Assembly: GCA_964470365.1 (NCBI GenBank)
Contig: CAYYCO010000007.1
Span: 207-64,206 of the forward strand
Length of the DNA: 64,000 nt
From: an uncultured Anaeromyxobacteraceae bacterium
Lineage (GTDB): Bacteria > Myxococcota_A > UBA9042 > DTJE01
Direction: 5' to 3'
A model generated the notes under the pieces. That model was not told the origin of the DNA. It ran no database searches and saw only the letters and a list, made by a program, of their open reading frames with translations. Positions 8,873 through 63,955 of this stretch are shown here, piece by piece. How positions within the stretch are numbered: the stretch's first letter is position 1; each line of letters opens with the position of its first letter. A program made the position numbers and the translations under genes.

Positions 8873-10663
8873 GTGGCCAGGATTGTCGTATTCAGTTCGA
8901 ACCAGCCGATTCGCGAATTCCCGCTGTTCCGCCGGTCCACCATGATCGGTCGCGACGAGGCCTGCGACATCTCGCTTCCGGTCCCGGGGCTGAAGGAAGT
9001 CCACGCCGAACTTATCCTGGACGGCGAATCGCACCGCGTCCTTCCGATGGACCCCAAGGCGGAAGTCCTGGTCAACGGCAACAAGACAAAAATGACGGTG
9101 CTCGAACCGTTCGATCTGATCCGCCTCGGGTCCGTAACCATGCTGTACGCTCCTGACGAATTCACGCTGCGTGACGGCGCGGGTCGGGAAAACGAGGCGT
9201 TGCGCGCACTGGAATCGATGTCTGGCCTCGGACGCCGCCTGATGGAAACCACCGACCTCGACCGCTGCCTCGAAATGCTGCTGGACGAAACGATCGCGAT
9301 CAGCCACGCCTCCAAGGGTTTCATCATTTTCAACGAACTGGATTCCCCGGTCGTGAAGGTCGCCCGCAACGTCGGAATGCACGAACTTCCCGACGACGCC
9401 GTGCTGTTTTCCGAAAGCATCGTCCGCAAAGCGCTGGAAAACGGGGAACCGCAACTGGTCAAGGACGCGGCCACCAACCAGGAATTCTCGTCGGCCACCA
9501 GCGTCGTCAACTTGAAACTCGCCTCGGTCATGTGCATCCCGCTGAAGTCGGGCGGCGCCGTCCTGGGGGTGCTGTATCTCGGCACCGAACGCGTCGTGGA
9601 CCTGTTCGACGAGGTGACATTCCGTACGCTGACCGTCCACGCGGCCCTGGCTGCCTCCATCGTCGCCAACGTGATGCTGATCAATTCGCTGCGCCGCGAC
9701 CGCGACGCCCTGCGCGAAGAAGTGAAAGTGTCCAGGTTCGGCGCCCTGATCGGTTCCTGCGACGGAATGCGCGCCGTTTTCGAACGCGTGTCCCGCGTGG
9801 CCCCGACCGACGTCCCCGTCCTGGTCACCGGCGAAACCGGCACCGGCAAGGAACTTATCGCCCGCGAAATTCACGGCCGCAGCCACCGCGCACAGAAACC
9901 GTTTGTCGCGATCAACTGCGGCGCGATCCCGGAAAACCTGATCGAAAGCGAACTGTTCGGCCATGTCAAGGGCGCTTTCACCGGCGCGATCAACACGACC
10001 GCGGGCAGGTTCCAGGCGGCCTCCGGCGGTACCCTTTTCCTGGATGAAATCGGCGACCTGCCGATTCACATGCAGGTCAAGCTGCTGCGGGTCCTGCAGG
10101 ACGGCCTGGTCATGAAGGTCGGCGGCACGCGGCCCGAACAGGTGGACATCCGGGTCCTTGCGGCGACCAACCGCAACCTCGAGGACGAAATCAGGGCCGG
10201 CCGCTTCCGCGAGGACCTTTACTACCGGATCGCCGTCGTGGGCATCAGGCTTCCGGCCCTGCGCGAACGCGGCGAGGACATCGACAGACTGGCCCAGTAT
10301 TTCCTGAAACGGTTCGCGACCGAATTCAAAAGTCCCGTCAGTCGATTCACGGCCGAGGCGGTGGCGGCCATGCACGCATACGGCTGGCCCGGGAACATCC
10401 GCGAACTGGAAAACCGCGTTCGCAAGGCGGTGTTGTTCGCCGACGGCCCTGCCGCGGGGACCGACGCCCTTGAATTCGACGCGGCGCCCGCCACCCCGCT
10501 GGATCTGCCGCTGGCGGCCGCGCGCGACAATTTCGAACAACGCTATGTGCTGGATGCCCTGAAACGCCACGGCGACAACAAGGCGGCCACCGCGCGCGCG
10601 CTGGGTGTCGATGTCAGGACCATATTCCGTTACCTGGAAAGGATGACCGGCGGCGAGGGCTGA
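8873..10663 (+). CDS. FHA-domain sigma-54-dependent transcriptional activator (FHA - GAF-like - AAA+ - Fis-type HTH)
   Basis: The N-terminal region matches an FHA fold ([15 protein letters not shown]). A central GAF-like segment follows. The AAA+ module has Walker A GETGTGKE, the GAFTGA sigma-54 contact loop and an ESELFGH motif. The C-terminus is a Fis-type HTH ([18 protein letters not shown]). Confidence 0.9.
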
Positions 10664-12919: not shown

Positions 12920-12977
12920 CACTTTCCCCGACACCCCCATTTCTGGTAAAGTCCTTCTGGCTTTGGAGTCTGCACCG

Positions 12978-14699
12978 ATGGAAAGGATTCCCGTTTCGAT
13001 CGCGATACTGCTTTCAATGTTCTTCGCAGCCCCGGCACTGGGGGCGACCGATCCGGAATACCCCGGCGACTCGTCGCATGTGCTGTGGTTCCTGGTCATG
13101 TCGGATGAACACATCACCGCCCGTGACAGCGACGGCCCCGAAAGGCTGACCTGGCTTGTGAACGACGGCATGACGTATGTTGAACCCGATATCGTGTTCA
13201 ACTGCGGCGACCTGACCGACGGCAGCAACGGCGAACCGCTGGTTTCGCTATATCCCGGCAAACAGGATGACGAATGGCAGGCCTACCGCCAGATTCTGGA
13301 CGACGCGGGAATTTCGGTTGAACAGTACATCGATCTTCCGGGCAACCACGACCAGTACAGCGACAGGGGCAACACCAGGTACCTGCAATACTCGCTGGCG
13401 GGCAGCACTTTTTCGCGCACGCAGCATTCCATCGTCATCGACAAACCGTGGGGCAGCTACCACTTCCTGGGCATCGACACCACCGGCAACGACGGCGCGG
13501 GTTGGCCGCTGGACAACGCTGGACTGGACGTCGACGAACTGCTGTACATCCTTCGGTCGCTGGAAGATAACGACGGGGCGCGGATGCAGGTAATGTTCGG
13601 GCACCACCCGATCGTCAGGCCGGACCTGGGTTTCAAGTTGAACGAGGGCAGCGACGAAATCCAGGAATTCATGGGCGACCACCGGGTCAGGGCATATTTT
13701 TACGGACACACCCACGAATACCGTGATCTTTACTGGCCTGACAATGACATGATGCCCGTGACCCTTCATGAAAACGTCGATTCGTTCGGCAAGGCCGAAA
13801 CGAACAACGTCATCCTCGCGTCGATCGACAACGACAACCTCCAGATCAGGCAGGTTTCCGTCGGCGAATTCCCCTGGGTCATCGTGACCGCTCCCGCCGA
13901 CATCAACCAGGGCGGCGGCAACCCGTGGGCCGTCGACGTCCCCGCCGGCATGGAATTCGCACCGATCCGCGCTCTCGGCTTCACATCCGATCCCTTCCTG
14001 TCCTGCCAGTATAGCCTGGACGGCGGGCCCTGGGTGACGATGGAACAGCTCGGCGACCACCGCTACGAGGGATACATGGACACGCGGGGCATGACCGCGG
14101 GTAATCACACCGTCGAGGTGCGCGCGCTGCCGGGACCGGCGAACGGCCACAAAATCACGTTCCGGGTCACGGCTTACGCCTGCGGCAACGGCATGGACGA
14201 GGACTCGGACGGTCTGACCGATTTCCCGGACGATCCTGGCTGTGATTCGGCCGCTGATAACGATGAATACAACGATATCGTCGTGCCTGAACCGGAACCC
14301 GAACCGGTGGCCGACGTGATCGTCGCCGACATGTATGTGCCGGACGCGTCCGTGCCGGACGCATTCGATCCCGAAGTTCCCGCCGCAGATGAACATACGG
14401 GCGAAACCGGCGAAACGGTCATTTTCGACGTTCCCGGCGACGCTGTTCCGGTCGACACAGCACTGATCGATGACCCCGGCGCCGTCGACGACCGTGGACA
14501 GGCATTTGACCATGGAATCGCTTCCGACGCGGCTTCCGACGCGGCTTCCGACGATGCCGCGGCGGATGACGACGTCGCCCGTGACGAACATTCCGGCGGC
14601 GGCTGCTCGGCCGGCGGCGGGACCGCCGGAAACGCATTCGGCGCGCTCGTGCTGCTGGCCCTGGCTGGCATGGCGATGCGCAGGAGGTCGTTCAATTGA
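12978..14699 (+). CDS. Secreted calcineurin-like metallophosphoesterase with a MYXO-CTERM-type sorting tail
   Basis: Start set at ATG 12978 (MERIPVSIAILLSMFFAAPALGA). The track ORF begins at an in-frame TTG 15 nt upstream. MPE motifs GDLTDGSNG, LPGNHD and GHTHEY are present. An acidic low-complexity region precedes the tail GGGCSAGGGTAGNAFGALVLLALAGMAMRRRSFN. Confidence 0.7.
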   Translation: MERIPVSIAILLSMFFAAPALGATDPEYPGDSSHVLWFLVMSDEHITARDSDGPERLTWLVNDGMTYVEPDIVFNCGDLTDGSNGEPLVSLYPGKQDDEWQAYRQILDDAGISVEQYIDLPGNHDQYSDRGNTRYLQYSLAGSTFSRTQHSIVIDKPWGSYHFLGIDTTGNDGAGWPLDNAGLDVDELLYILRSLEDNDGARMQVMFGHHPIVRPDLGFKLNEGSDEIQEFMGDHRVRAYFYGHTHEYRDLYWPDNDMMPVTLHENVDSFGKAETNNVILASIDNDNLQIRQVSVGEFPWVIVTAPADINQGGGNPWAVDVPAGMEFAPIRALGFTSDPFLSCQYSLDGGPWVTMEQLGDHRYEGYMDTRGMTAGNHTVEVRALPGPANGHKITFRVTAYACGNGMDEDSDGLTDFPDDPGCDSAADNDEYNDIVVPEPEPEPVADVIVADMYVPDASVPDAFDPEVPAADEHTGETGETVIFDVPGDAVPVDTALIDDPGAVDDRGQAFDHGIASDAASDAASDDAAADDDVARDEHSGGGCSAGGGTAGNAFGALVLLALAGMAMRRRSFN

Positions 14700-15232
14700 A
14701 GACTTCGACAATCATTGCAATCGCGGCGGGCGGCCTGGTGGTCGCCGCGGTCACCGTTACGCTCGTCGTTTCGGCCACGAACCGTGGCAACTCCGTGAAA
14801 CCGGAAAAGGCCGCGACTGCCCAGACGGCACCTGCACCGGTCCGCGGCAACGGTCTCAGGAATTCGCCCAGGATCCCGCGTCCGCCCAAGGTCGCCGCCC
14901 CGCAGGGAAAGGATCTGCGTGAACCACAACCCATAAAGTCGGCCGATTATGTGAAAAACGCGATCAGGTTCGGCGTTCAGAAGGCGCCCGATACGAAGCT
15001 GCCGATTGCCAGGATGGCGCAGATGCCGGTCAGCGGTCCTTCGGCCGCGGACAGGATTGTCGGCCGCGCTCAGACGCTTCGCGCACAGGGCAAGAATGCC
15101 GAGGCGACCAAACTGCTGAAAAATTCGCTGCTGACCGAAACGAACCCTTATTACCGCAAACTTCTTGAAAACGCCATCAGGGAAGACCAGCAGGCCAATC
15201 GCAGGCCGCCTGATGGTGCACAATTCAAGTAA
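14696..15232 (+). CDS. Hypothetical membrane-anchored protein
   Basis: 178 aa with an N-terminal TM anchor (IIAIAAGGLVVAAVTVTLVV). Its start overlaps the previous stop by 4 nt. No recognisable domain. Confidence 0.45.
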   Translation: MKTSTIIAIAAGGLVVAAVTVTLVVSATNRGNSVKPEKAATAQTAPAPVRGNGLRNSPRIPRPPKVAAPQGKDLREPQPIKSADYVKNAIRFGVQKAPDTKLPIARMAQMPVSGPSAADRIVGRAQTLRAQGKNAEATKLLKNSLLTETNPYYRKLLENAIREDQQANRRPPDGAQFK

Positions 15233-15251
15233 TCCATTCGCAGGGGGCGCC

Positions 15252-17093
15252 ATGTCCACCGAAATGCCCGTTCATTCAAAGGCTTTCAAGATCCGCAGGT
15301 TCCTGAACTGGTTCCCCATGGGCCTGACGTACGCGTTCCTGTACATGGGCAGGTACAACCTGACCGTGGCCAAGAATTCGCTGGGCGACATGATGACCAA
15401 GGAGGACTTCGGCCTGATTTTCGGGGCCGGAACGCTGGTGTACGCATTCGCTTTCCTGCTGAACGGGCCGCTGACTGACAAGGTCGGCGGGAAAAAGGCC
15501 ATCCTTGCAGCGTCGCTCGGTTCGGGCATCATGAACCTGCTGATGGGCCTGTTCGTGTGGAACATGATCGTCAACCCGGGTTCGATGGCCCTGAACATGG
15601 TCACGACCATGTCGGTCATGTACGCGATCAACATGTATTTCCAGTCGTTCGCGGCGGTCGCCATCGTCAAGGTGAATTCGTCGTGGTTCCACGTACGCGA
15701 ACGCGGCGGATTTTCGGGCATTTTCGGCACGATGATCTCATCCGGCATCTTCTTCGCGTTCACCGTCAATTCCTGGATCCTGAACCTGACGTCCGCCTGG
15801 GGCCCGACCGGGTCGAAGGCCACCTGGTGGGTCTTCCTGATGCCGTCGTTCATCCTTTTCACGATGTTCGTCGTCGAAATATTCCTGCTGCGCGACACGC
15901 CGAAAAAGGCGGGGCTTGAAGACTTCAATACCGGCGACGCGACGTCCGATGTCGGCTCCGACGTCGGCCTGGCCCAGATCGTGAAAAAGGTACTGACCAA
16001 CCCGATCATCCTGACCGTCGCCTTCATCGAACTGTGCACCGGCGTCATCCGCAACGGCGTCATGCACTGGTTCCCGATTTATGCGAAGGAAGTCCTGGCC
16101 CTGCCGTCGCACCACATGCTGCGGGACGGGTCGTGGGCCGGACACCTTTGGTGGGTCGTTGCTGCCATGTTCGCGCTGGCCGCGATCCTGTTCATCCTTT
16201 CGACGAAGTTTACCGGCAAACGCAAGGCGACCCTGATCGTGTCCGGCGCCCTGATTGCGCTGGCGCCGTTCATGCAGGGCGGCTGGGGCGGCCTGCTGTT
16301 CGTGGCGGGCGTCATCGGCGGCAACGTGGCCGGCTGGGTCAGCGACCTGTTCTTCCAGTCCAGGCGCGCCCCCGCCGCGGCCGGGCTTTACGGGCTGCTG
16401 GCCCTGTGCCTGGTCGGCATGTACTTCAGCCTGAGCGGCACAAAATCGGAAGTTGGCTGGACGAAATCCGACGAATACGGGCTGAAAAAGGGTGACGTGG
16501 TCGTTTCCGTCAACGGGAAGGATGGCCTTCGGGACTGGACCGACGTATCGCGCGCGATTGCCTGCATCCCGTCCGCCTGTCAGGGCGACAAGGTCGTCTG
16601 GGACATGAAGGCCTGCATGTGCACGGCCAAACCGAAAGAACCCGCGGGCGCCGGCCTGCTCACATCGGACGGCACGATCCACCTGGTCGTCGATCGCGGC
16701 GGACGCGGTACCGCCGTCGAACTGAAGGACCCGCTGATGACGGCCCGCGCCGGCGATTCGCGCAGGCTGGACGCCGGGCCGGTCCTGACCCTGACGCCGT
16801 TCTTCCTGGGCCTCATCCTGTTCCTGGTTTCCCTGGGCGTCATCGGCACGCACGGCCTGCTTTCCGGCACCGCCACGATGGACTTCGGCGGCACGAAGGG
16901 CGCCGCCACCGCGGTCGGCATGATCGACGGCTTCGTTTATCTGGGCACCGCGCTGCAGAGCGTGTCCCTGGGCTTCCTGACCACCCGGTCATGGTCATAC
17001 TGGCCGCTGTTCATGCTGCCATTCAGTTTCCTGGGCTTCTTCCTGCTGACCCGCATCTGGAACGCCAAACCGAAGGCCGGCGGCGGGCACTAG
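15252..17093 (+). CDS. OPA-family MFS transporter (GlpT/UhpC-like) with an inserted PDZ-like, Cys-rich soluble domain
   Basis: Start set at MSTEMPVHSK. The N-terminus follows the GlpT/UhpC pattern (FLYMGRYNLTVAKNSLGDMMTKEDFGLIFGAGTLVYAFAFLLNGPLTDKVGGKK). A ~115-aa insertion sits before the last two TM helices. It carries a PDZ-like GLKKGDVVVSVNGKDGLRDW segment and five Cys (CIPSAC, CMC). Confidence 0.75.
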   Translation: MSTEMPVHSKAFKIRRFLNWFPMGLTYAFLYMGRYNLTVAKNSLGDMMTKEDFGLIFGAGTLVYAFAFLLNGPLTDKVGGKKAILAASLGSGIMNLLMGLFVWNMIVNPGSMALNMVTTMSVMYAINMYFQSFAAVAIVKVNSSWFHVRERGGFSGIFGTMISSGIFFAFTVNSWILNLTSAWGPTGSKATWWVFLMPSFILFTMFVVEIFLLRDTPKKAGLEDFNTGDATSDVGSDVGLAQIVKKVLTNPIILTVAFIELCTGVIRNGVMHWFPIYAKEVLALPSHHMLRDGSWAGHLWWVVAAMFALAAILFILSTKFTGKRKATLIVSGALIALAPFMQGGWGGLLFVAGVIGGNVAGWVSDLFFQSRRAPAAAGLYGLLALCLVGMYFSLSGTKSEVGWTKSDEYGLKKGDVVVSVNGKDGLRDWTDVSRAIACIPSACQGDKVVWDMKACMCTAKPKEPAGAGLLTSDGTIHLVVDRGGRGTAVELKDPLMTARAGDSRRLDAGPVLTLTPFFLGLILFLVSLGVIGTHGLLSGTATMDFGGTKGAATAVGMIDGFVYLGTALQSVSLGFLTTRSWSYWPLFMLPFSFLGFFLLTRIWNAKPKAGGGH

Positions 17094-17111
17094 CGGGCGT
17101 GCCGGTTTTTT
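17083..17111 (+). terminator. Putative intrinsic terminator after the MFS gene
   Basis: GGCAC-N8-GTGCC stem followed by GG and TTTTTT, immediately after stop 17093. The stem partly overlaps the stop codon. Confidence 0.45.
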
Positions 17112-17251
17112 GATAATCCACGGATATCTAACGTCAATTGCGCTGGTAGACGAATTACCGCGCCCGGGACTTCGCCGGCCAGGTGACATGTTCCACTTCA
17201 ACGTTGCAATCCGGATACCGGGGCAAAGGACAAGCCACCCTGCCAGGTCTC

Positions 17252-18121
17252 TCACCAGTAGACGTGGTAAATCGGCTGGACTTCGGAACAGGGACGGCAC
17301 ATCGATGACGGAAGGCCGGTGTTGCGTCGGTTGCGGCCGGCGACGGACTTGAAAACCGGGCCGGACTTTTCTTCGTCGCACAGCAGGCAGTCGTTCAGGG
17401 TACCGTCCGCGTTGTGATAGGACGCGTCGAGCAGTTCGAAACAGGTCGAAAAACACTCGGCCTGCGTATGCATGGTGTTGTAATACCAGATCTGCGCGCA
17501 CGGAAGGTCGAAGCCCAGGTCGCGCAGGCACTGTATGTTGCCGTCGGGATTCCCGAAATTGTCCAGGCCGCAGGCGCGCACCGGGTCGGTCAGGTCCGGG
17601 TGCCGCATGTACACCACAAGGTTGGTCAGCGTCGAACAGACCCCGCAGCCGTCCCAGTGCGTGATGTATGCCCCGGCATCAATGGCATCGGCTTCGCTGG
17701 CGAAGGTTTCCAGCCGGTATCCGTTTTCGACGGAATCATCCAGAAACAGGCCGCACACCGCGCCCGGCACCGGCTGGTGCAGTTCCGGTTCGGCATAAGG
17801 GTCTTCGGTGACTTCGGCGGGCGGGTTCACCGGAACCATCGCCAGCAGGCGTTCAATGTCGGCTTCCGTGTATGCGGGCGGCCGGAAGCACTTCCCGCCG
17901 CAGTTGAATTCCGGGCGGCACTGTTCGGCTGTCAGGCCGGTCTTATCGTTCGGGACGCCGAACAGGAACGTGCATTCGTCGTCAGATACCGGCTCGCCGC
18001 AGTAATCGACGGCCGGTTCACCGCCGCATCCGGCCAGCGCAACTGAAACGACCACGGCACCAAGCGTGCGGGCCGCGTTGAAAAAGCTTGAAATCACCGG
18101 AACCTCCCTGTTTGTGAGCAT
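17252..18121 (-). CDS. Cys-rich hypothetical lipoprotein
   Basis: Start set at MLTNREVPVISSFFNAARTLGAVVVSVALAGCGG (lipobox). The mature chain has about 20 Cys. No known motif. Confidence 0.5.
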   Translation of the reverse strand: MLTNREVPVISSFFNAARTLGAVVVSVALAGCGGEPAVDYCGEPVSDDECTFLFGVPNDKTGLTAEQCRPEFNCGGKCFRPPAYTEADIERLLAMVPVNPPAEVTEDPYAEPELHQPVPGAVCGLFLDDSVENGYRLETFASEADAIDAGAYITHWDGCGVCSTLTNLVVYMRHPDLTDPVRACGLDNFGNPDGNIQCLRDLGFDLPCAQIWYYNTMHTQAECFSTCFELLDASYHNADGTLNDCLLCDEEKSGPVFKSVAGRNRRNTGLPSSMCRPCSEVQPIYHVYW

Positions 18122-18146
18122 GAATCGTCTGCCGCCCCCACCCTCT

Positions 18147-18749
18147 TCAAAGCAGGCCCATTTCCGAAAGGCGGGCGGCAAGATTGACGTCGGGGCCCAG
18201 GCAGATGGTCTGGAAACCCAGCGCCCGGGCGGCGTCGGTGTTTTTCCGGCTGTCATCGATAAACAGGCATTCTTCGGCAAAAAGCCCGTAACGGGTCAGC
18301 AGCGCGTCGAATATCCGCCTGTCCGGCTTCGTCACACCCTCGTCGCCGGAAACAACCATACCATCGAAATCATTGAAGAAGTCATACCGTCGAAGGACGA
18401 TGTTGAAGGTTTCACGCGACCAGTTCGTCAGCCCGAAGACGCCGCATTTCGCCTTCAGCGGCTTGATAAGGGCCGTGTTTTCGACGATCTCGCCGCCAAC
18501 CATGCGGGTCCATTCGCCGTAATACATCGCGATCTGATCGTGGTATTCGGGATGCAGCGCCTGCAGTTCGGCGGTCGCCACGGCCGTCGGGTGGCCGGCG
18601 TCCACGCGGCCGTTCCATTCGTTGCTGCAGATGTCGGAAAGAAAGTATTCCATTTCCGCGGGGTCCGTGAAAACGTCCCTGAACAGATAACGGGGATTCC
18701 AGTCGATCAACACCCCGCCGAAATCGAAAACGATGTTCCTGATGACCAT
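18147..18749 (-). CDS. HAD-superfamily hydrolase (subfamily IA-like)
   Basis: Start at MVIRNIVFDFGGVLIDW, which carries HAD motif I DxDxG. Motif II is LTNWS and motif IV is IDDSRKN. About 200 aa. Confidence 0.8.
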   Translation of the reverse strand: MVIRNIVFDFGGVLIDWNPRYLFRDVFTDPAEMEYFLSDICSNEWNGRVDAGHPTAVATAELQALHPEYHDQIAMYYGEWTRMVGGEIVENTALIKPLKAKCGVFGLTNWSRETFNIVLRRYDFFNDFDGMVVSGDEGVTKPDRRIFDALLTRYGLFAEECLFIDDSRKNTDAARALGFQTICLGPDVNLAARLSEMGLL

Positions 18750-18855: not shown

Positions 18856-19932
18856 TTGGCGGACCAGATTCCTGAACAGTTCCAGCTTTCGATGTACGAC
18901 TTCGACCTGCCGGACGACCGCATCGCCCAGGTCCCGGCCGACAGGCGCGACCATTCACGACTGATGCACCTCCCGCTTGCGGGCGGCGAACCGACCGACC
19001 ATGTCTTTTCCGACGTTGGCCGGTTCCTGCGTCCCGGCGACTGCCTGGTCCTGAACGACACGCGGGTATTTCCCGCGCGCCTGTTCGCAACCAAACCGGC
19101 GGGCGGGCGTGTGGAGCTGCTGGCCCTCGAATCCGGCGGCGATCGTTTCACCGCGATGTACGGGACTCACCGCGGCCTGCGGGCCGGGACGACGCTTGAA
19201 ATACTCGACCGCCACGGCGTGCCGTCCGGGCGGAAGGTCCTGGTTGAATCCACCGCGGAAGGGCGTGCGACAATCCTCGTCAAGGACGGCGATTCCGCCG
19301 ACGACGCAGCGACCCTGTTTGCCCGGTTCGGCCATATGCCGCTGCCGCCGTACATCAAGCGCCCCGACGACACCCATGACGACCTGGACCTGGATCGGTA
19401 CCAGACCGTCTACGCCGAAAACAACGGCGCGGTCGCGGCCCCCACGGCGGGCCTGCACTTCACCCCGGCCGTCCTTGACGGGCTGCGCGCGGCCGGCGTT
19501 GAAACGGTACGCGTGACCTTGCACGTCGGCCCGGGCACTTTCCGGCCGATCCGTACCGACGACGTCCGGCTGCACGACGTCGGGACCGAAAGTTTCGTGA
19601 TCACCGAAGAATCCGCGGCCGCGATCAACCGCGCGCTGGACGACGGCCGCCGCGTCATCGCGGTGGGTACCACGGTCGTACGCACGCTGGAATCCGCCGG
19701 CGCGGACGGCCGGGTCAGGCCTGGCAGCGAGGCCACATCGATCCTGATAACCCCCGGATACCGCTTCAGGATCATCAGCGGGATGCTGACGAACTTCCAC
19801 ATCCCGAAATCTTCCCTGATACTTCTGGTATCCGCCCTGGTCGGCCGTACACGCATACTGGACGCGTACCGTACGGCCGTCGCGCGCGATTACCGTTTCT
19901 ATTCGTATGGCGATTCGATGCTGATACTGTGA
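18856..19932 (+). CDS. queA: S-adenosylmethionine:tRNA ribosyltransferase-isomerase
   Basis: QueA signature throughout (DFDLPDDRIAQ, YQTVYA, GLHFT, ISGMLTNFHIPKSSL). An alternative start at Met 18892 is possible. Confidence 0.9.
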   Translation: MADQIPEQFQLSMYDFDLPDDRIAQVPADRRDHSRLMHLPLAGGEPTDHVFSDVGRFLRPGDCLVLNDTRVFPARLFATKPAGGRVELLALESGGDRFTAMYGTHRGLRAGTTLEILDRHGVPSGRKVLVESTAEGRATILVKDGDSADDAATLFARFGHMPLPPYIKRPDDTHDDLDLDRYQTVYAENNGAVAAPTAGLHFTPAVLDGLRAAGVETVRVTLHVGPGTFRPIRTDDVRLHDVGTESFVITEESAAAINRALDDGRRVIAVGTTVVRTLESAGADGRVRPGSEATSILITPGYRFRIISGMLTNFHIPKSSLILLVSALVGRTRILDAYRTAVARDYRFYSYGDSMLIL

Positions 19933-19966
19933 CGGCGTGGCCGCGAAAGGCCCGCCGGAGGGTTCG

Positions 19967-21124
19967 ATGTCCGACGGATTCAAGTTCGAACTGCTGATGA
20001 CCGACCCGCGCACGGGCGCCCGCCGCGGCCGCCTGCACACGCCGCACGGCACGGTCGAAACGCCATGCTTCATGCCTGTCGGCACGCTCGGCACGGTAAA
20101 AGGGATGCTTCCCGAAAACGTGGCGGCCGCCGGTTTCGGCCTGATCCTGGGCAACACATACCACCTGTCGCTGCGTCCCGGCCCCGATATCGTCGCCGCG
20201 CACGGCGGACTGCACCGGTTCATGGGCTGGAACGGCGCGATCCTGACCGATTCCGGGGGGTTCCAGGTCTTCAGCCTGTCCCACCGCCGCAAGCTGTCGG
20301 CCGACGGCGTCGCGTTCAAGTCGCACATCAACGGCGACCCGATCGAATTCACCCCGGAATCCGTCATCGGCATCCAGGAAAAGCTGGGGTCGGACATCGC
20401 GATGGTCCTTGACGTGTGCCCGCCTTCGACGGCGCCGGTCATGGAACTGGACCGCGCGCTTGAACTGACCACGCAGTGGGCCCGCCGATGCGTTAACGCG
20501 CGCACCCGCCACGACCAGGCGGTGTTCGGCATCGTCCAGGGCGGACTGGACGTGGAACGGCGCGTCCAGCACGCGGCCGCGCTGCGTGAAATGGATTTCG
20601 AGGGATTCGCCATCGGCGGACTTTCGGTCGGCGAGCCCCCGCACCAGATGTACCCGGTCGCCGCCGCCACCGCCGCCGCCCTGCCCGTCGACAAGCCGAG
20701 GTACCTGATGGGCGTGGGCATGCCTGCCGATCTTCCAAACTGCGTCGCGGGCGGCGTCGACATGTTCGACTGCGTGTTCCCGACCAGGTGCGGGCGCAAC
20801 GGCACATACCTGACCACGATCGGCCGTCTGAACATCAAAAACACGAAATACAGGGACGACCTGTCGCCGATCGACCCCGGCTGCGACTGCCCGGTCTGCA
20901 CCCGATTCACGGCGGCCTACCTGCGCCACCTTTACATTTCGGGCGAAATCCTGTCCAACGTGCTGAACACGACGCATAACCTGCATTACTATGCCAGGTT
21001 GATGGCCGACGTGCGCGCGGCCGTGGAAAACGGGACCATCGCGGAACTGGCATCCAGGCTGATTGGCATCCACGGCAGGGATCCGATGCTGGAAGCCGGT
21101 CGTAACGGCGGGGACGCGGACTGA
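19967..21124 (+). CDS. tgt: Queuine tRNA-ribosyltransferase
   Basis: Start at MSDGFKFELL. TGT motifs TPHGTVETPCFMPVGT and LGNTYHL are present, plus the Zn site CDCPVC with a downstream His. Confidence 0.9.
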   Translation: MSDGFKFELLMTDPRTGARRGRLHTPHGTVETPCFMPVGTLGTVKGMLPENVAAAGFGLILGNTYHLSLRPGPDIVAAHGGLHRFMGWNGAILTDSGGFQVFSLSHRRKLSADGVAFKSHINGDPIEFTPESVIGIQEKLGSDIAMVLDVCPPSTAPVMELDRALELTTQWARRCVNARTRHDQAVFGIVQGGLDVERRVQHAAALREMDFEGFAIGGLSVGEPPHQMYPVAAATAAALPVDKPRYLMGVGMPADLPNCVAGGVDMFDCVFPTRCGRNGTYLTTIGRLNIKNTKYRDDLSPIDPGCDCPVCTRFTAAYLRHLYISGEILSNVLNTTHNLHYYARLMADVRAAVENGTIAELASRLIGIHGRDPMLEAGRNGGDAD

Positions 21125-42278: not shown

Positions 42279-42350
42279 TCTCCGGTCGTCCAACGGTTAG
42301 GACACGGGCCTTTGGAGCCTGGTATCGGGGTTCGAATCCCTGCCGGAGAG
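42279..42350 (+). tRNA. tRNA-Gln (anticodon TTG)
   Basis: Hand-folded cloverleaf. Acceptor TCTCCGG/CCGGAGA. D-arm GTCC-AACGGTTA-GGAC. Anticodon arm CGGGC-CTTTGGA-GCCTG with U33 and anticodon TTG (G at position 37 is unusual). T-arm CGGGG-TTCGAAT-CCCTG. Discriminator G. CCA is not encoded. The track ORF 42177-42389 overlapping it is spurious. Confidence 0.6.
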
Positions 42351-42433
42351 CCGCGAATCCATGGTTACGGGGCCGGGATCGGGCAGTGATCGGGACCACC
42401 GGCTTGGCCGGATTGACACGAAGGTGGCACACA

Positions 42434-63787: not shown

Positions 63788-63935
63788 CAGGTTCACCGGG
63801 TTGGGCCGCTTTCTAGGAATCCTAGCAGGGATTATCGAAATAGTTCAACGGAAGGAACCACACAAATTTTATCCGCGATCCGGCAAACGTCATCCGCCCA
63901 GCGGCCCGACCGAAGGAAGGCCCGCCATACATCAG

Positions 63936-63955
63936 CCCGGGGCGTGAGCCCCGGG
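63936..63955. other. Perfect 8-bp hairpin with a GTGA tetraloop, upstream of glgA
   Basis: CCCGGGGC GTGA GCCCCGGG. It sits ~150 nt upstream of the glgA start near the window end. Function unknown (regulatory stem, or a terminator of an off-window gene). Confidence 0.35.

Follow-up and report, generated by a model that had tools for sequence, protein, structure and literature searches.

The OPA family of MFS transporters (TC 2.A.1.4), whose characteristic activity is the electroneutral exchange of an organophosphate for inorganic phosphate, includes GlpT, UhpT, PgtP, SLC37A2, and SLC37A4. In GlpT, the paired cavity arginines Arg-45 (TM1) and Arg-269 (TM7) bind the phosphate moiety. UhpC, another OPA-family protein, is a glucose-6-phosphate sensor.

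RseP, RasP, and MucP are M50 peptidases of the inner membrane whose multispanning chain carries PDZ sequence within an extracytoplasmic loop. The tandem PDZ domains of RseP are periplasmic and act as a size filter for active-site access. The PDZ domains of DegS and RseP detect envelope cues.

Folded domains in the extracytoplasmic loops of MFS transporters are, to our knowledge, rare, and the known ones (OATP, PepT, and the luminal domain of SV2) are eukaryotic and mostly of unclear function. Extracellular loop 5 of the OATPs is the loop between TM9 and TM10. A Kazal-like domain sits in extracellular loop 5 of the OATPs, above the C-bundle (PMC10507018). PepT1 and PepT2 contain an Ig-like domain in an extracellular loop, and that of PepT2 lies between TM9 and TM10 (PMC8386928).

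Few membrane proteins have been studied as thoroughly as MFS transporters. The window analyzed here, the whole stretch of 64,000 nucleotides from an uncultured Anaeromyxobacteraceae bacterium, encodes a member of a bacterial MFS family that carries an RseP-like PDZ domain in loop 9-10. A literature search for a PDZ domain inside an MFS transporter found nothing relevant, and homologues of the protein carry no annotation beyond "MFS transporter". The architecture is genuine, conserved across the family, and unstudied. All features given with coordinates below lie on the + strand.

The transporter gene and its membrane core

The gene for the MFS-PDZ transporter occupies positions 15252..17093, stop codon included, as defined by the ORF list, homologues, and an AlphaFold2 (AF2) model. 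The open reading frame spans 15165-17093, and a start at the ATG at 15252 gives a product of 613 amino acids that is 100% identical to database protein P0001; this start also fits the N-termini of homologues. Direct reading of the sequence places a Shine-Dalgarno-like AGGGGG (15242..15247) 4 nt 5′ of the ATG. A terminator-like hairpin with a T-run (17086..17113), which a pattern scan detects as a consensus match only, overlaps the stop codon. The protein ends in a cytoplasmic C-terminal tail, GGH-COOH (17082..17090), that is conserved in the homologue alignment: GGH is the terminus in 68 of 110 homologues, and His is the last residue in most.

The AF2 model of the whole protein (pLDDT 87.8, pTM 0.89) contains 14 membrane helices, of which 12 are canonical and 2 are extra. 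Pfam MFS_1 matches residues 24-390 with an E-value of 8e-22 and 78 bits, above the gathering score of 33.4, and a Foldseek search with the full model matches 249 PDB MFS structures at E <= 1e-3. The protein is very likely a 14-helix MFS secondary transporter, composed of an OPA-related 12-helix core and two inserts on the periplasmic side of the C-bundle.

The N-domain comprises TM1-TM6 (residues 10-212; 15279..15887), as placed by AF2 helices and by profile alignment to GlpT (1pw4), and includes R34. It is followed by the K/R-rich central loop on the cytoplasmic side (residues 213-250; 15888..16001; AF2), which includes an amphipathic helix, and by canonical TM7 (residues 251-280; 16002..16091; AF2 and the GlpT alignment), which includes R267. 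Canonical TM8 and TM9 (residues 344-393; 16281..16430) contain the loop motif GWVSDLFFQSRR and lie opposite GlpT 292-340, while canonical TM10-TM12 (residues 516-603; 16797..17060) lie opposite GlpT 352-431, both assigned from AF2. Because the larger insert sits in the canonical TM9-TM10 loop, three helices follow it in the AF2 model (516-545, 551-579, and 583-603), and not the two that the first-pass annotation had described.

That annotation also read the core as an OPA-like MFS protein, and on this point the best NCBIfam scores, the Foldseek ranks, and the GlpT profile match agree with it. The best-scoring curated families are of OPA type, yet all fall short of their cut-offs: TIGR00881 scores 86.8 bits against 407.75, glpT 68.3 against 632.55, and UhpC 42.3 against 564. 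Ranks 1-8 in the Foldseek search of the full model are SLC37A2, GlpT (1pw4), and SLC37A4/G6PT. A single-sequence phmmer search of the PDB gives no match, and a family profile is needed to reach GlpT, which is then the only significant sequence match (E 4.7e-9). The transporter is a distant relative of the OPA proteins GlpT, UhpT, PgtP, and SLC37, and it stands outside the family by the curated criterion.

The core shares with the OPA family its MFS fold, its TM1 and TM7 arginines, and similar motifs in loops 2-3, 4-5, and 8-9. In the profile alignment to 1pw4, R34 corresponds to GlpT R45 and R267 to GlpT R269, with the aligned pairs ymgRynl / YLVRKNF and GvlRngvmhW / YLLRYGILDW, and both arginines are invariant across 110 homologues. 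The protein differs from OPA members in its identity of only ~15%, in its 14 helices in place of 12, and in the loss of GlpT K80, whose position is occupied by F68; the region of GlpT H165 is gapped. The OPA scores far below threshold, together with the change from K80 to F68, leave the substrate class uncertain. The two families also differ in their periplasmic loops: GlpT has 11 residues in loop 9-10 and 7 in loop 7-8, where the present protein has a PDZ domain and a hairpin.

The hairpin is an extra pair of TM helices (residues 300-342; 16149..16277) in periplasmic loop 7-8, identified from AF2 and the GlpT alignment. Its helices (300-317 and 322-342) have a pLDDT above 93, and residues 285-343 stand in for GlpT 285-291 in the profile alignment. 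It is poorly conserved in the homologue alignment (0.50-0.62), and a distant family member, P0164, is without it. This second insertion had been missed in the earlier reading.

The PDZ-fold insert in loop 9-10

The insert (residues 394-515; 16431..16796) is a periplasmic PDZ-fold domain in the TM9-TM10 loop, supported by AF2, Foldseek, and profile matches. Its 122 residues replace the 11-residue GlpT loop (GlpT 341-351) in the profile alignment. The first-pass annotation had placed a soluble, PDZ-like insert at about nucleotides 16438-16790, in good agreement with the folded domain in the AF2 model, and had named structure prediction, topology, and a profile search of the insert alone as ways to check it. 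The structure prediction bears this out: the insert is a folded, beta-rich domain that adopts a PDZ fold (pLDDT 88-97 in the full model, 89.3 when folded alone) and is neither disordered nor an extended loop. Its first strand (397-404) begins 3 residues past TM9 and its last (508-512) stops 3 residues before TM10.

Pfam PDZ_6 scores 19.5 bits with the full protein and 22.8 bits with the insert alone, below its cut-off of 27, and falls on the motif that had been quoted as PDZ-like; PDZ and PDZ_2 score lower, and none of these three models reaches its gathering threshold on the insert. In a Foldseek search with the insert, all 50 matches listed are PDZ domains or PDZ-containing proteins (probability 0.94-1.0); RseP and RasP lead the matches listed, and the PDZ domains of MamP, DegP, and EpsC are also present. 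Against the isolated PDZ-C domain of RseP (3id3, 7w70), the target-normalized TM-score is 0.69-0.74. Searched against 1.84 billion proteins, a profile of the insert reaches, outside its own family, the PDZ repeats of M50 proteases (E 8.9e-12 to 1e-4), whose PDZ and M50 content Pfam confirms. The insert is a PDZ fold, most similar to those in the periplasmic portion of RseP-type site-2 proteases. In some family members, loop 9-10 holds one more PDZ domain; the additional one in P0099 passes the PF00595 cut-off of 23.2 with 27.0 bits.

The topology check places the domain on the periplasmic side. The short loops contain 24 Lys and Arg residues inside vs 5 outside, as in canonical MFS topology, and by this charge distribution the loop that holds the insert is predicted to be extracytoplasmic, the counterpart of GlpT periplasmic loop 9-10. 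The statement that MFS antiporters have short loops at this position holds for bacterial OPA carriers, with 11 residues in GlpT, but not for MFS proteins generally, given the OATPs and PepT1/2.

After the PDZ alpha-helix comes a Cys-rich knuckle, CxPxxC...WDxxxCxC (residues 438-458; 16563..16625), defined by the homologue alignment and AF2; the model forms a small beta-hairpin there from strands 449-451 and 456-458. Residues 438-458 matched none of the Pfam models and none of the structures listed. The insert contains four cysteines (C438, C443, C455, and C457), one fewer than had been counted; C262 and C386 are in TM helices. All four are present in 101 of 110 homologues, whereas 8 of 110 jointly lack C438 and C455 and retain C443 and C457. 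Variants with three losses exist, and the distant member P0164 is without the knuckle cysteines. Since the cysteines are lost in pairs, we infer two disulfides, C438-C455 and C443-C457, in place of a four-Cys metal site.

The insert is no chance feature: its position is identical in 110 of 110 aligned homologues, and D415, W429, G501, R504, and P510 are invariant. Averaged over its length, conservation of the insert is 0.51, vs 0.8-0.9 for the core. Its most conserved part is residues 493-515, with D493 at 99%, and W450-D451 in the knuckle is also conserved. Within this part lies the most conserved segment beyond the fold skeleton, RAGDxRxLxAGP (residues 499-510; 16746..16781; alignment), which runs into TM10 (A500 99%, G501 100%, D502 93%, R504 100%, and P510 100%). 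The candidate carboxylate-binding loop, L394-x-G396, lies directly after TM9 and is conserved at 83, 71, and 49% across its three positions.

Like the PDZ domains of RseP, RasP, and MucP, the insert interrupts an extracytoplasmic loop of a multispanning protein of the inner membrane. It differs in that its host is a transporter, that the PDZ domain is usually single, and that a knuckle with putative disulfides is added. The OATPs (SLCO), anion carriers of MFS fold that are among the Foldseek matches of the full model, offer a parallel in their extracellular loop 5, which holds a Cys-rich domain with disulfide bonds (PMC10507018); unlike the present family, they are eukaryotic, belong to an unrelated subfamily, and have a Kazal fold in place of a PDZ fold. 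PepT1 and PepT2 (SLC15) also have a large folded domain between TM9 and TM10 (PMC8386928). Theirs consists of two Ig-like domains on flexible linkers without substantial contact to the membrane domain, in contrast to the one PDZ domain here with linkers of ~3 residues.

Family distribution and gene neighborhood

The transporter has more than 4000 homologues, thousands of them metagenomic sequences with the same architecture, and the insert is also present in more distant family members. Homologues labeled with an organism are almost all from Myxococcota MAGs, and the 80 genome loci kept for analysis are all MAGs. A cultured or characterized member was sought in the homologue searches, and the matches listed there were all metagenomic or MAG proteins that bear generic names. 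In a transporter census, MXAN_2663 (Q1D8Z1) is the sole OPA-like protein of M. xanthus, with 13 predicted TMS and an E-value of 1e-13 to UhpC (PMC3924187 supplement). No mention of MXAN_2663 was found in the paper texts searched.

Upstream of the transporter are a gene for a MYXO-CTERM-type calcineurin-like phosphoesterase (12963..14699; Pfam Metallophos) and a gene for a membrane-anchored protein of 178 amino acids (14696..15232; ORF list). These two genes overlap by 4 nt (12963-14699 / 14696-15232), and a gap of 19 nt separates them from the transporter, with which both are probably co-transcribed, judging from this spacing. The MYXO-CTERM score of the phosphoesterase is 19.5 bits, against a cut-off of 20. 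The phosphoesterase, the 178-residue protein, a Cys-rich protein of 342 amino acids, a HAD-IA gene, and queA/tgt are neighbors local to the window: they recur in just 2-7 of 83 related loci, all from close relatives. It had been suggested that the insert tethers the transporter to the adjacent surface-protein or phosphoesterase genes' products; with so few loci sharing these neighbors, the thousands of family members cannot depend on them, and the suggestion is not supported.

A conserved-neighbor analysis of 84 loci found no universal partner gene. HAD hydrolases (phosphatase superfamily) of three lineages adjoin the gene in 18 of the 84 (21%), although these occurrences are phylogenetically non-independent. 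At 8 of those 18 loci, a gene of 327 amino acids lies 20-48 nt downstream on the same strand and is followed by the HAD gene. Searches of Pfam, NCBIfam, and the PDB gave no match for this recurrent 327-residue protein, its named homologues are all "hypothetical protein", and it offers no hint of the substrate. An apparent cluster of sigma-54 activators near the gene proved to be scattered paralogues, within 6 kb in 10 of 84 loci and at variable distance. No conserved histidine kinase or other signaling partner was found nearby in the 84 loci.

Possible roles of the PDZ domain

The proposed function is that of a carrier of a phosphorylated anion whose PDZ domain serves as a rigid periplasmic vestibule or filter. 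As a whole, this explanation is given an even chance. A phosphorylated or otherwise anionic small solute would be carried across the inner membrane by a rocker-switch mechanism, probably in exchange for phosphate as the counter-substrate. The PDZ domain is predicted to ride rigidly on the C-bundle over the periplasmic mouth, where, as a vestibule, lid, or filter, it would influence how the cavity is reached. The linkers of ~3 residues and the conserved stretch leading to TM10 speak for a rigid mounting, and the periplasmic PDZ domains of RseP and the OATP Kazal-like domain above the C-bundle are precedents. Gating of transport by the insert, which the first-pass annotation had raised, is a candidate role. 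Such access may be shaped through surfaces specific to the family, namely the invariant RAGDxR...P segment that enters TM10 and the W450-D451 knuckle. An anionic or organophosphate substrate is a balanced wager. The HAD hydrolases that adjoin 18 of the 84 loci count as a link to phosphate metabolism; their 21% share and phylogenetic non-independence count against the proposal. The vestibule or filter role itself is tentative, and classical binding of C-terminal peptides is probably not what the domain does.

If the PDZ domain does gate or feed the carrier, the family would offer a tractable system in bacteria for studying the control of MFS transport by an extracellular domain and would point to a Myxococcota-specific route of phosphorus or nutrient acquisition. 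If it is only structural, annotation of the domain architecture is still worthwhile, as the public label is merely "MFS transporter".

Partner recruitment in the periplasm ranks second among the likely roles of the domain. A docking module, the earlier tether suggestion in general form, is unlikely. Here, the PDZ domain would bind a periplasmic or surface enzyme (e.g., a phosphoesterase), or a binding protein, by its C-terminus or by a beta-hairpin, and substrate would be made or delivered at the mouth of the transporter, as has been proposed for trypsin and the extracellular domain of PepT1/2. PDZ domains are protein-binding modules, the PDZ fold is supported, and the second PDZ domain at the same loop in some members fits modular partner binding. 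In the window itself, a MYXO-CTERM-type metallophosphoesterase gene precedes the transporter gene, apparently within one operon, and the PepT2 domain between TM9 and TM10 has been proposed to localize trypsin (PMC8386928). However, the window's neighbors are confined to those 2-7 loci and no partner gene is conserved family-wide. Conservation is strongest in the TM10 linker and the knuckle and only moderate in the putative carboxylate-binding loop, and linkers of ~3 residues imply a domain that is fixed, not roving.

A passive appendage is likewise unlikely. In this case, the PDZ domain and the hairpin would just stabilize or protect the C-bundle or mediate oligomerization, with no role in substrate access. 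The insert and the hairpin are both far less conserved than the core, and the distant P0164 does without the hairpin and the cysteines; the parallel would be the Kazal-like domain of the OATPs, which PMC10507018 describes as having no known function. The low conservation of the insert relative to the core tells against the vestibule proposal, since it suits a mere structural appendage too. Conversely, the insert is present in every aligned homologue and in more distant members, some lineages have a duplicate of the domain or an additional one at that site, and the invariant D415 and R504, the nearly invariant D493, and the conserved W450-D451 exceed what the fold skeleton requires.

A PDZ receptor in a secondary transporter would be a first, and is distinctly unlikely. 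A periplasmic ligand, protein or peptide, docked on the disulfide-braced PDZ domain would either switch an organophosphate carrier or supply it; this ligand may be the C-terminal end of a secreted phosphoesterase or a piece of prey envelope. If true, this would amount to a ligand-gated or enzyme-channeled MFS transporter, and in predatory or saprophytic Myxococcota it would tie digestion outside the cell directly to uptake.

A sensor or transceptor similar to UhpC, which would mainly signal and whose PDZ domain would detect an envelope cue as in DegS and RseP, is very improbable. The weak NCBIfam match to UhpC (42 bits) and the nearest PDZ relatives of the insert, which belong to envelope-stress proteases, would suit such a role. 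Against it, signaling partners are not conserved nearby, sigma-54 activators included, and the transporter core is very strongly constrained in its cavity arginines and loop motifs.

A cytoplasmic or metal-binding regulatory insert of the Zn-knuckle type, suggested by the four cysteines in a CxxxxC...CxC arrangement, is scarcely credible and was rejected, as the loop aligns with GlpT periplasmic loop 9-10, the charge balance of 24 to 5 is positive-inside, and a tetrahedral Zn site would not tolerate the joint loss of C438 and C455 or the three-Cys-loss variants.

Transporter core and loop insertions

The 613-aa product of 15252-17093 (+) is an MFS transporter with an OPA-like core and a PDZ-type insert at residues 394-515. 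It represents a real, conserved and uncharacterized architecture. The open reading frame spans 15165-17093 (+) in the window's ORF list, and translation from the ATG at 15252 gives a product identical to database protein P0001, with an N-terminus that agrees with its homologues. A Shine-Dalgarno-like AGGGGG lies 4 nt before this ATG on the same strand, the preceding gene's stop codon lies 19 nt upstream, and a pattern scan places a terminator-like hairpin over the transporter's stop codon.

The OPA-like MFS core described in the first-pass annotation is borne out by a Pfam MFS_1 match (residues 24-390, E 8e-22) and by the best NCBIfam models, which are all OPA-type (TIGR00881 at 86.8 bits, glpT at 68.3, UhpC at 42.3). 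The core is likened in its working to the OPA carriers, yet all three scores fall far under their curated cut-offs, which leaves the protein outside curated OPA membership. Searched against PDB sequences, the family profile matches only E. coli GlpT (1pw4, E 4.7e-9) and DgoT, a galactonate carrier. Its alignment with GlpT pairs TM1-TM7 (residues 11-284) with GlpT 21-284, TM8-TM9 (344-391) with 292-340, and TM10-TM12 (525-598) with 352-431. R45 and R269, the cavity arginines of GlpT, pair with R34 and R267, which are invariant across 110 family homologues; F68 stands opposite GlpT K80.

AlphaFold2, run on the full protein with the 110-sequence family alignment, returns a model (mean pLDDT 87.8, pTM 0.89) in which 14 long helices are accompanied by a beta-rich domain spanning residues 394-515 (pLDDT 88-97). 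Foldseek ranks SLC37A2, GlpT, and SLC37A4 highest for this model. The short loops predicted to face the cytoplasm contain 24 Lys plus Arg and those facing the periplasm 5. This distribution fits the canonical N-in/C-in topology of MFS proteins and places the insert in the periplasm. By profile alignment, residues 392-524 take the place of the 11-residue periplasmic loop 9-10 of GlpT. Three modeled helices follow the PDZ insert (516-545, 551-579, 583-603), rather than the two first proposed. Conservation is 0.51 in the insert versus 0.8-0.9 in the core helices.

Likewise, where GlpT has a periplasmic loop 7-8 of 7 residues, this protein has residues 285-343. This region holds an extra two-helix TM hairpin, unmentioned in the first-pass annotation, at 16149-16277 (residues 300-342), making the protein a 14-helix MFS. 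Additional MFS helices usually sit in the central loop. Both hairpin helices (300-317 and 322-342) are confidently modeled (pLDDT >93) and poorly conserved (0.50-0.62), and the distant member P0164 lacks both the hairpin and the cysteines.

Fold and cysteines of the insert

By structure and by profile, the insert has a PDZ fold, though it scores under the Pfam PDZ threshold: the PDZ_6 match at residues 407-437 stays below the 27-bit cut-off both when the whole protein is scanned (19.5 bits) and when only the insert is (22.8 bits). Folded alone by AlphaFold2 with a 54-sequence alignment, the insert is ordered (pLDDT 89.3, pTM 0.79). All 50 Foldseek PDB matches listed for it are PDZ domains or PDZ-containing proteins, led by the site-2 proteases RseP and RasP and followed by MamP, DegP/DegQ, HtrA, and EpsC, with E-values from 5e-4. 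Its target-normalized TM-score against the isolated RseP PDZ-C is 0.69-0.74.

A profile of the insert alone, searched against 1.84 billion representative proteins, matches 99 proteins at E <= 1e-3. Among these, the complete insert is confined to the studied MFS family (fragments plus P0127, P0132, and P0139), and in the more distant member P0164 this loop carries PDZ domains that lack cysteines. Of the remaining matches, those examined with Pfam proved to be M50 site-2 proteases bearing several PDZ repeats, except for the secreted multi-PDZ protein P0211; these match only over profile positions ~10-54. The PDZ-like character noted at first reading is thus upheld by the sub-threshold PDZ_6 hit, the Foldseek matches, and the profile matches to PDZ-bearing M50 proteases. 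Conservation within the insert centers on three regions: the PDZ skeleton (G414, D415, W429, R482, and G484), the cysteine-bearing knuckle, and a segment entering TM10 (D493-P494 ... R499-A500-G501-D502-x-R504 ... P510).

The insert contains four cysteines (C438, C443, C455, and C457) instead of the five initially counted; the fifth is probably C386 in TM9. All four are kept in 101 of 110 homologues, and in 8 of 110, C438 and C455 are lost jointly with C443 and C457 retained. Conservation of the knuckle comprises the cysteines, P440, W450, and D451. The pairwise loss and the periplasmic location indicate, at the level of sequence, two putative disulfides, C438-C455 and C443-C457. The same two observations argue against a zinc knuckle and disfavor the suggested metal-binding insert, so a zinc-binding role is unlikely.

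Candidate roles of the PDZ domain

The conserved arginine pair and OPA-like core suggest that a phosphorylated or anionic substrate would be moved by rocker-switch exchange. In the model, the linkers joining the PDZ domain to TM9 and TM10 are about 3 residues each, and the domain should therefore ride rigidly on the C-bundle. The most conserved non-skeleton surface of the insert is the Arg-rich linker into TM10. Because of this rigid mounting and conserved linker, a role as vestibule, lid, or filter is favored by analogy over docking and structural roles. RseP, whose PDZ domains act as a filter, offers the analogue.

Partner docking and a purely structural role come next in likelihood, again by analogy. 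PepT1/2, eukaryotic MFS proteins, carry a large folded domain between TM9 and TM10, and the PepT extracellular domain is proposed to dock trypsin (PMC8386928). The candidate carboxylate-binding loop directly after TM9 (394-396) shows only 49-83% conservation. For a structural role, the comparison is with eukaryotic OATP, whose large folded domain in ECL5 is Kazal-like and of unknown function (PMC10507018). A UhpC-like sensor role is unlikely. The literature search returned no report of a large folded loop domain in any MFS protein from bacteria, nor of one that is a PDZ domain. As a structural result the finding is solid, and a transporter specialist would be mildly surprised by it.

At the C-terminus (17082-17090), which is cytoplasmic, 68 of 110 homologues terminate in GGH-COOH, and His is the last residue in most. 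This conserved end suggests a recognized tail or metal-binding end; it cannot be a cis ligand of the PDZ domain, because the membrane separates the two.

Distribution and genomic context

A first homologue search returned >4000 matches, of which the best 120 are about 600-740 aa with 51-87% identity to the query; a second, seeded from a Myxococcia MAG, returned >5900 at E <= 1e-20. GTDB contigs (one genome per species) contain 226 stretches coding for a relative. Of the 80 loci retained, every one comes from a MAG, and the labels are almost wholly Myxococcota (Polyangia, Myxococcia, Sandaracinaceae, Haliangiales, Anaeromyxobacteraceae). Homologues P0051 and P0097 carry a tandem second Cys-knuckle PDZ domain in loop 9-10, and P0074, P0099, and P0110 have an additional ordinary PDZ domain there and have lost three of four cysteines.

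Source names of the homologues are only "MFS transporter", "OPA family glycerol-3-phosphate transporter-like", and "sugar phosphate permease"; no characterized member was found among them, and no relevant paper in the literature. In a transporter census (supplement to PMC3924187), Myxococcus xanthus MXAN_2663 (UniProt Q1D8Z1) is the sole OPA-like protein of that organism; 13 TMS are predicted for it, and its match to UhpC reaches only E 1e-13. Since these values fit what the PDZ-bearing family would give, MXAN_2663 may represent an orthologue from a cultured species.

The transporter gene appears to close an operon in the window. Its first gene encodes a 578-aa calcineurin-like metallophosphoesterase (12963-14699, +) that has an acidic region of Cys repeats and a MYXO-CTERM sorting signal just under threshold (19.5 bits, cut-off 20). 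This gene overlaps by 4 nt a gene directly upstream of the transporter (14696-15232, +), and co-transcription with the transporter is probable. The 178-aa product of the middle gene is anchored in the membrane by its N-terminus and belongs to no Pfam or NCBIfam family; two Anaeromyxobacteraceae-labeled MAG loci (L005, L077) are the only ones with a homologue at this position. Among 84 compared loci, the three-gene arrangement occurs in 2-7, closest relatives only, and no neighbor is conserved family-wide.

The one recurrent pattern is that HAD-superfamily hydrolases of three unrelated lineages adjoin the MFS gene in 18 of the 84 loci. This lends weak support to a connection with phosphate-ester metabolism; the loci are phylogenetically non-independent. 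In 8 of these 18 (L002, L003, L017, L018, L022, L030, L039, L068), the one-strand order is MFS, a 327-aa unknown (9847-10830 in L002), and HAD, with the middle gene beginning 20-48 nt past the MFS gene. The ~325-327-aa protein has a P-loop-like GKS motif, no Pfam, NCBIfam, or PDB match, and at least 2771 homologues, the labeled ones including Polyangia, Bradymonadales, and Elusimicrobia; it is an uncharacterized family of its own.

Convergent with the transporter, a 342-aa Cys-rich ORF (17252-18280, -) looks secreted from its sequence; it matches nothing in Pfam or NCBIfam, and none of the 83 related loci contains a homologue. Ordinary neighbors, none tied to the transporter across the family, are a HAD-IA hydrolase (18147-18749, -), queA (18856-19932, +), tgt (19937-21124, +), and an FHA-GAF-sigma-54 activator (8873-10663, +). 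The window also contains a tRNA-Gln(TTG) (42279-42352, +) and, near its end, a match to the Rfam model of the Acido-Lenti-1 sRNA (63902-63955, -; 40.8 bits, gathering score 37).
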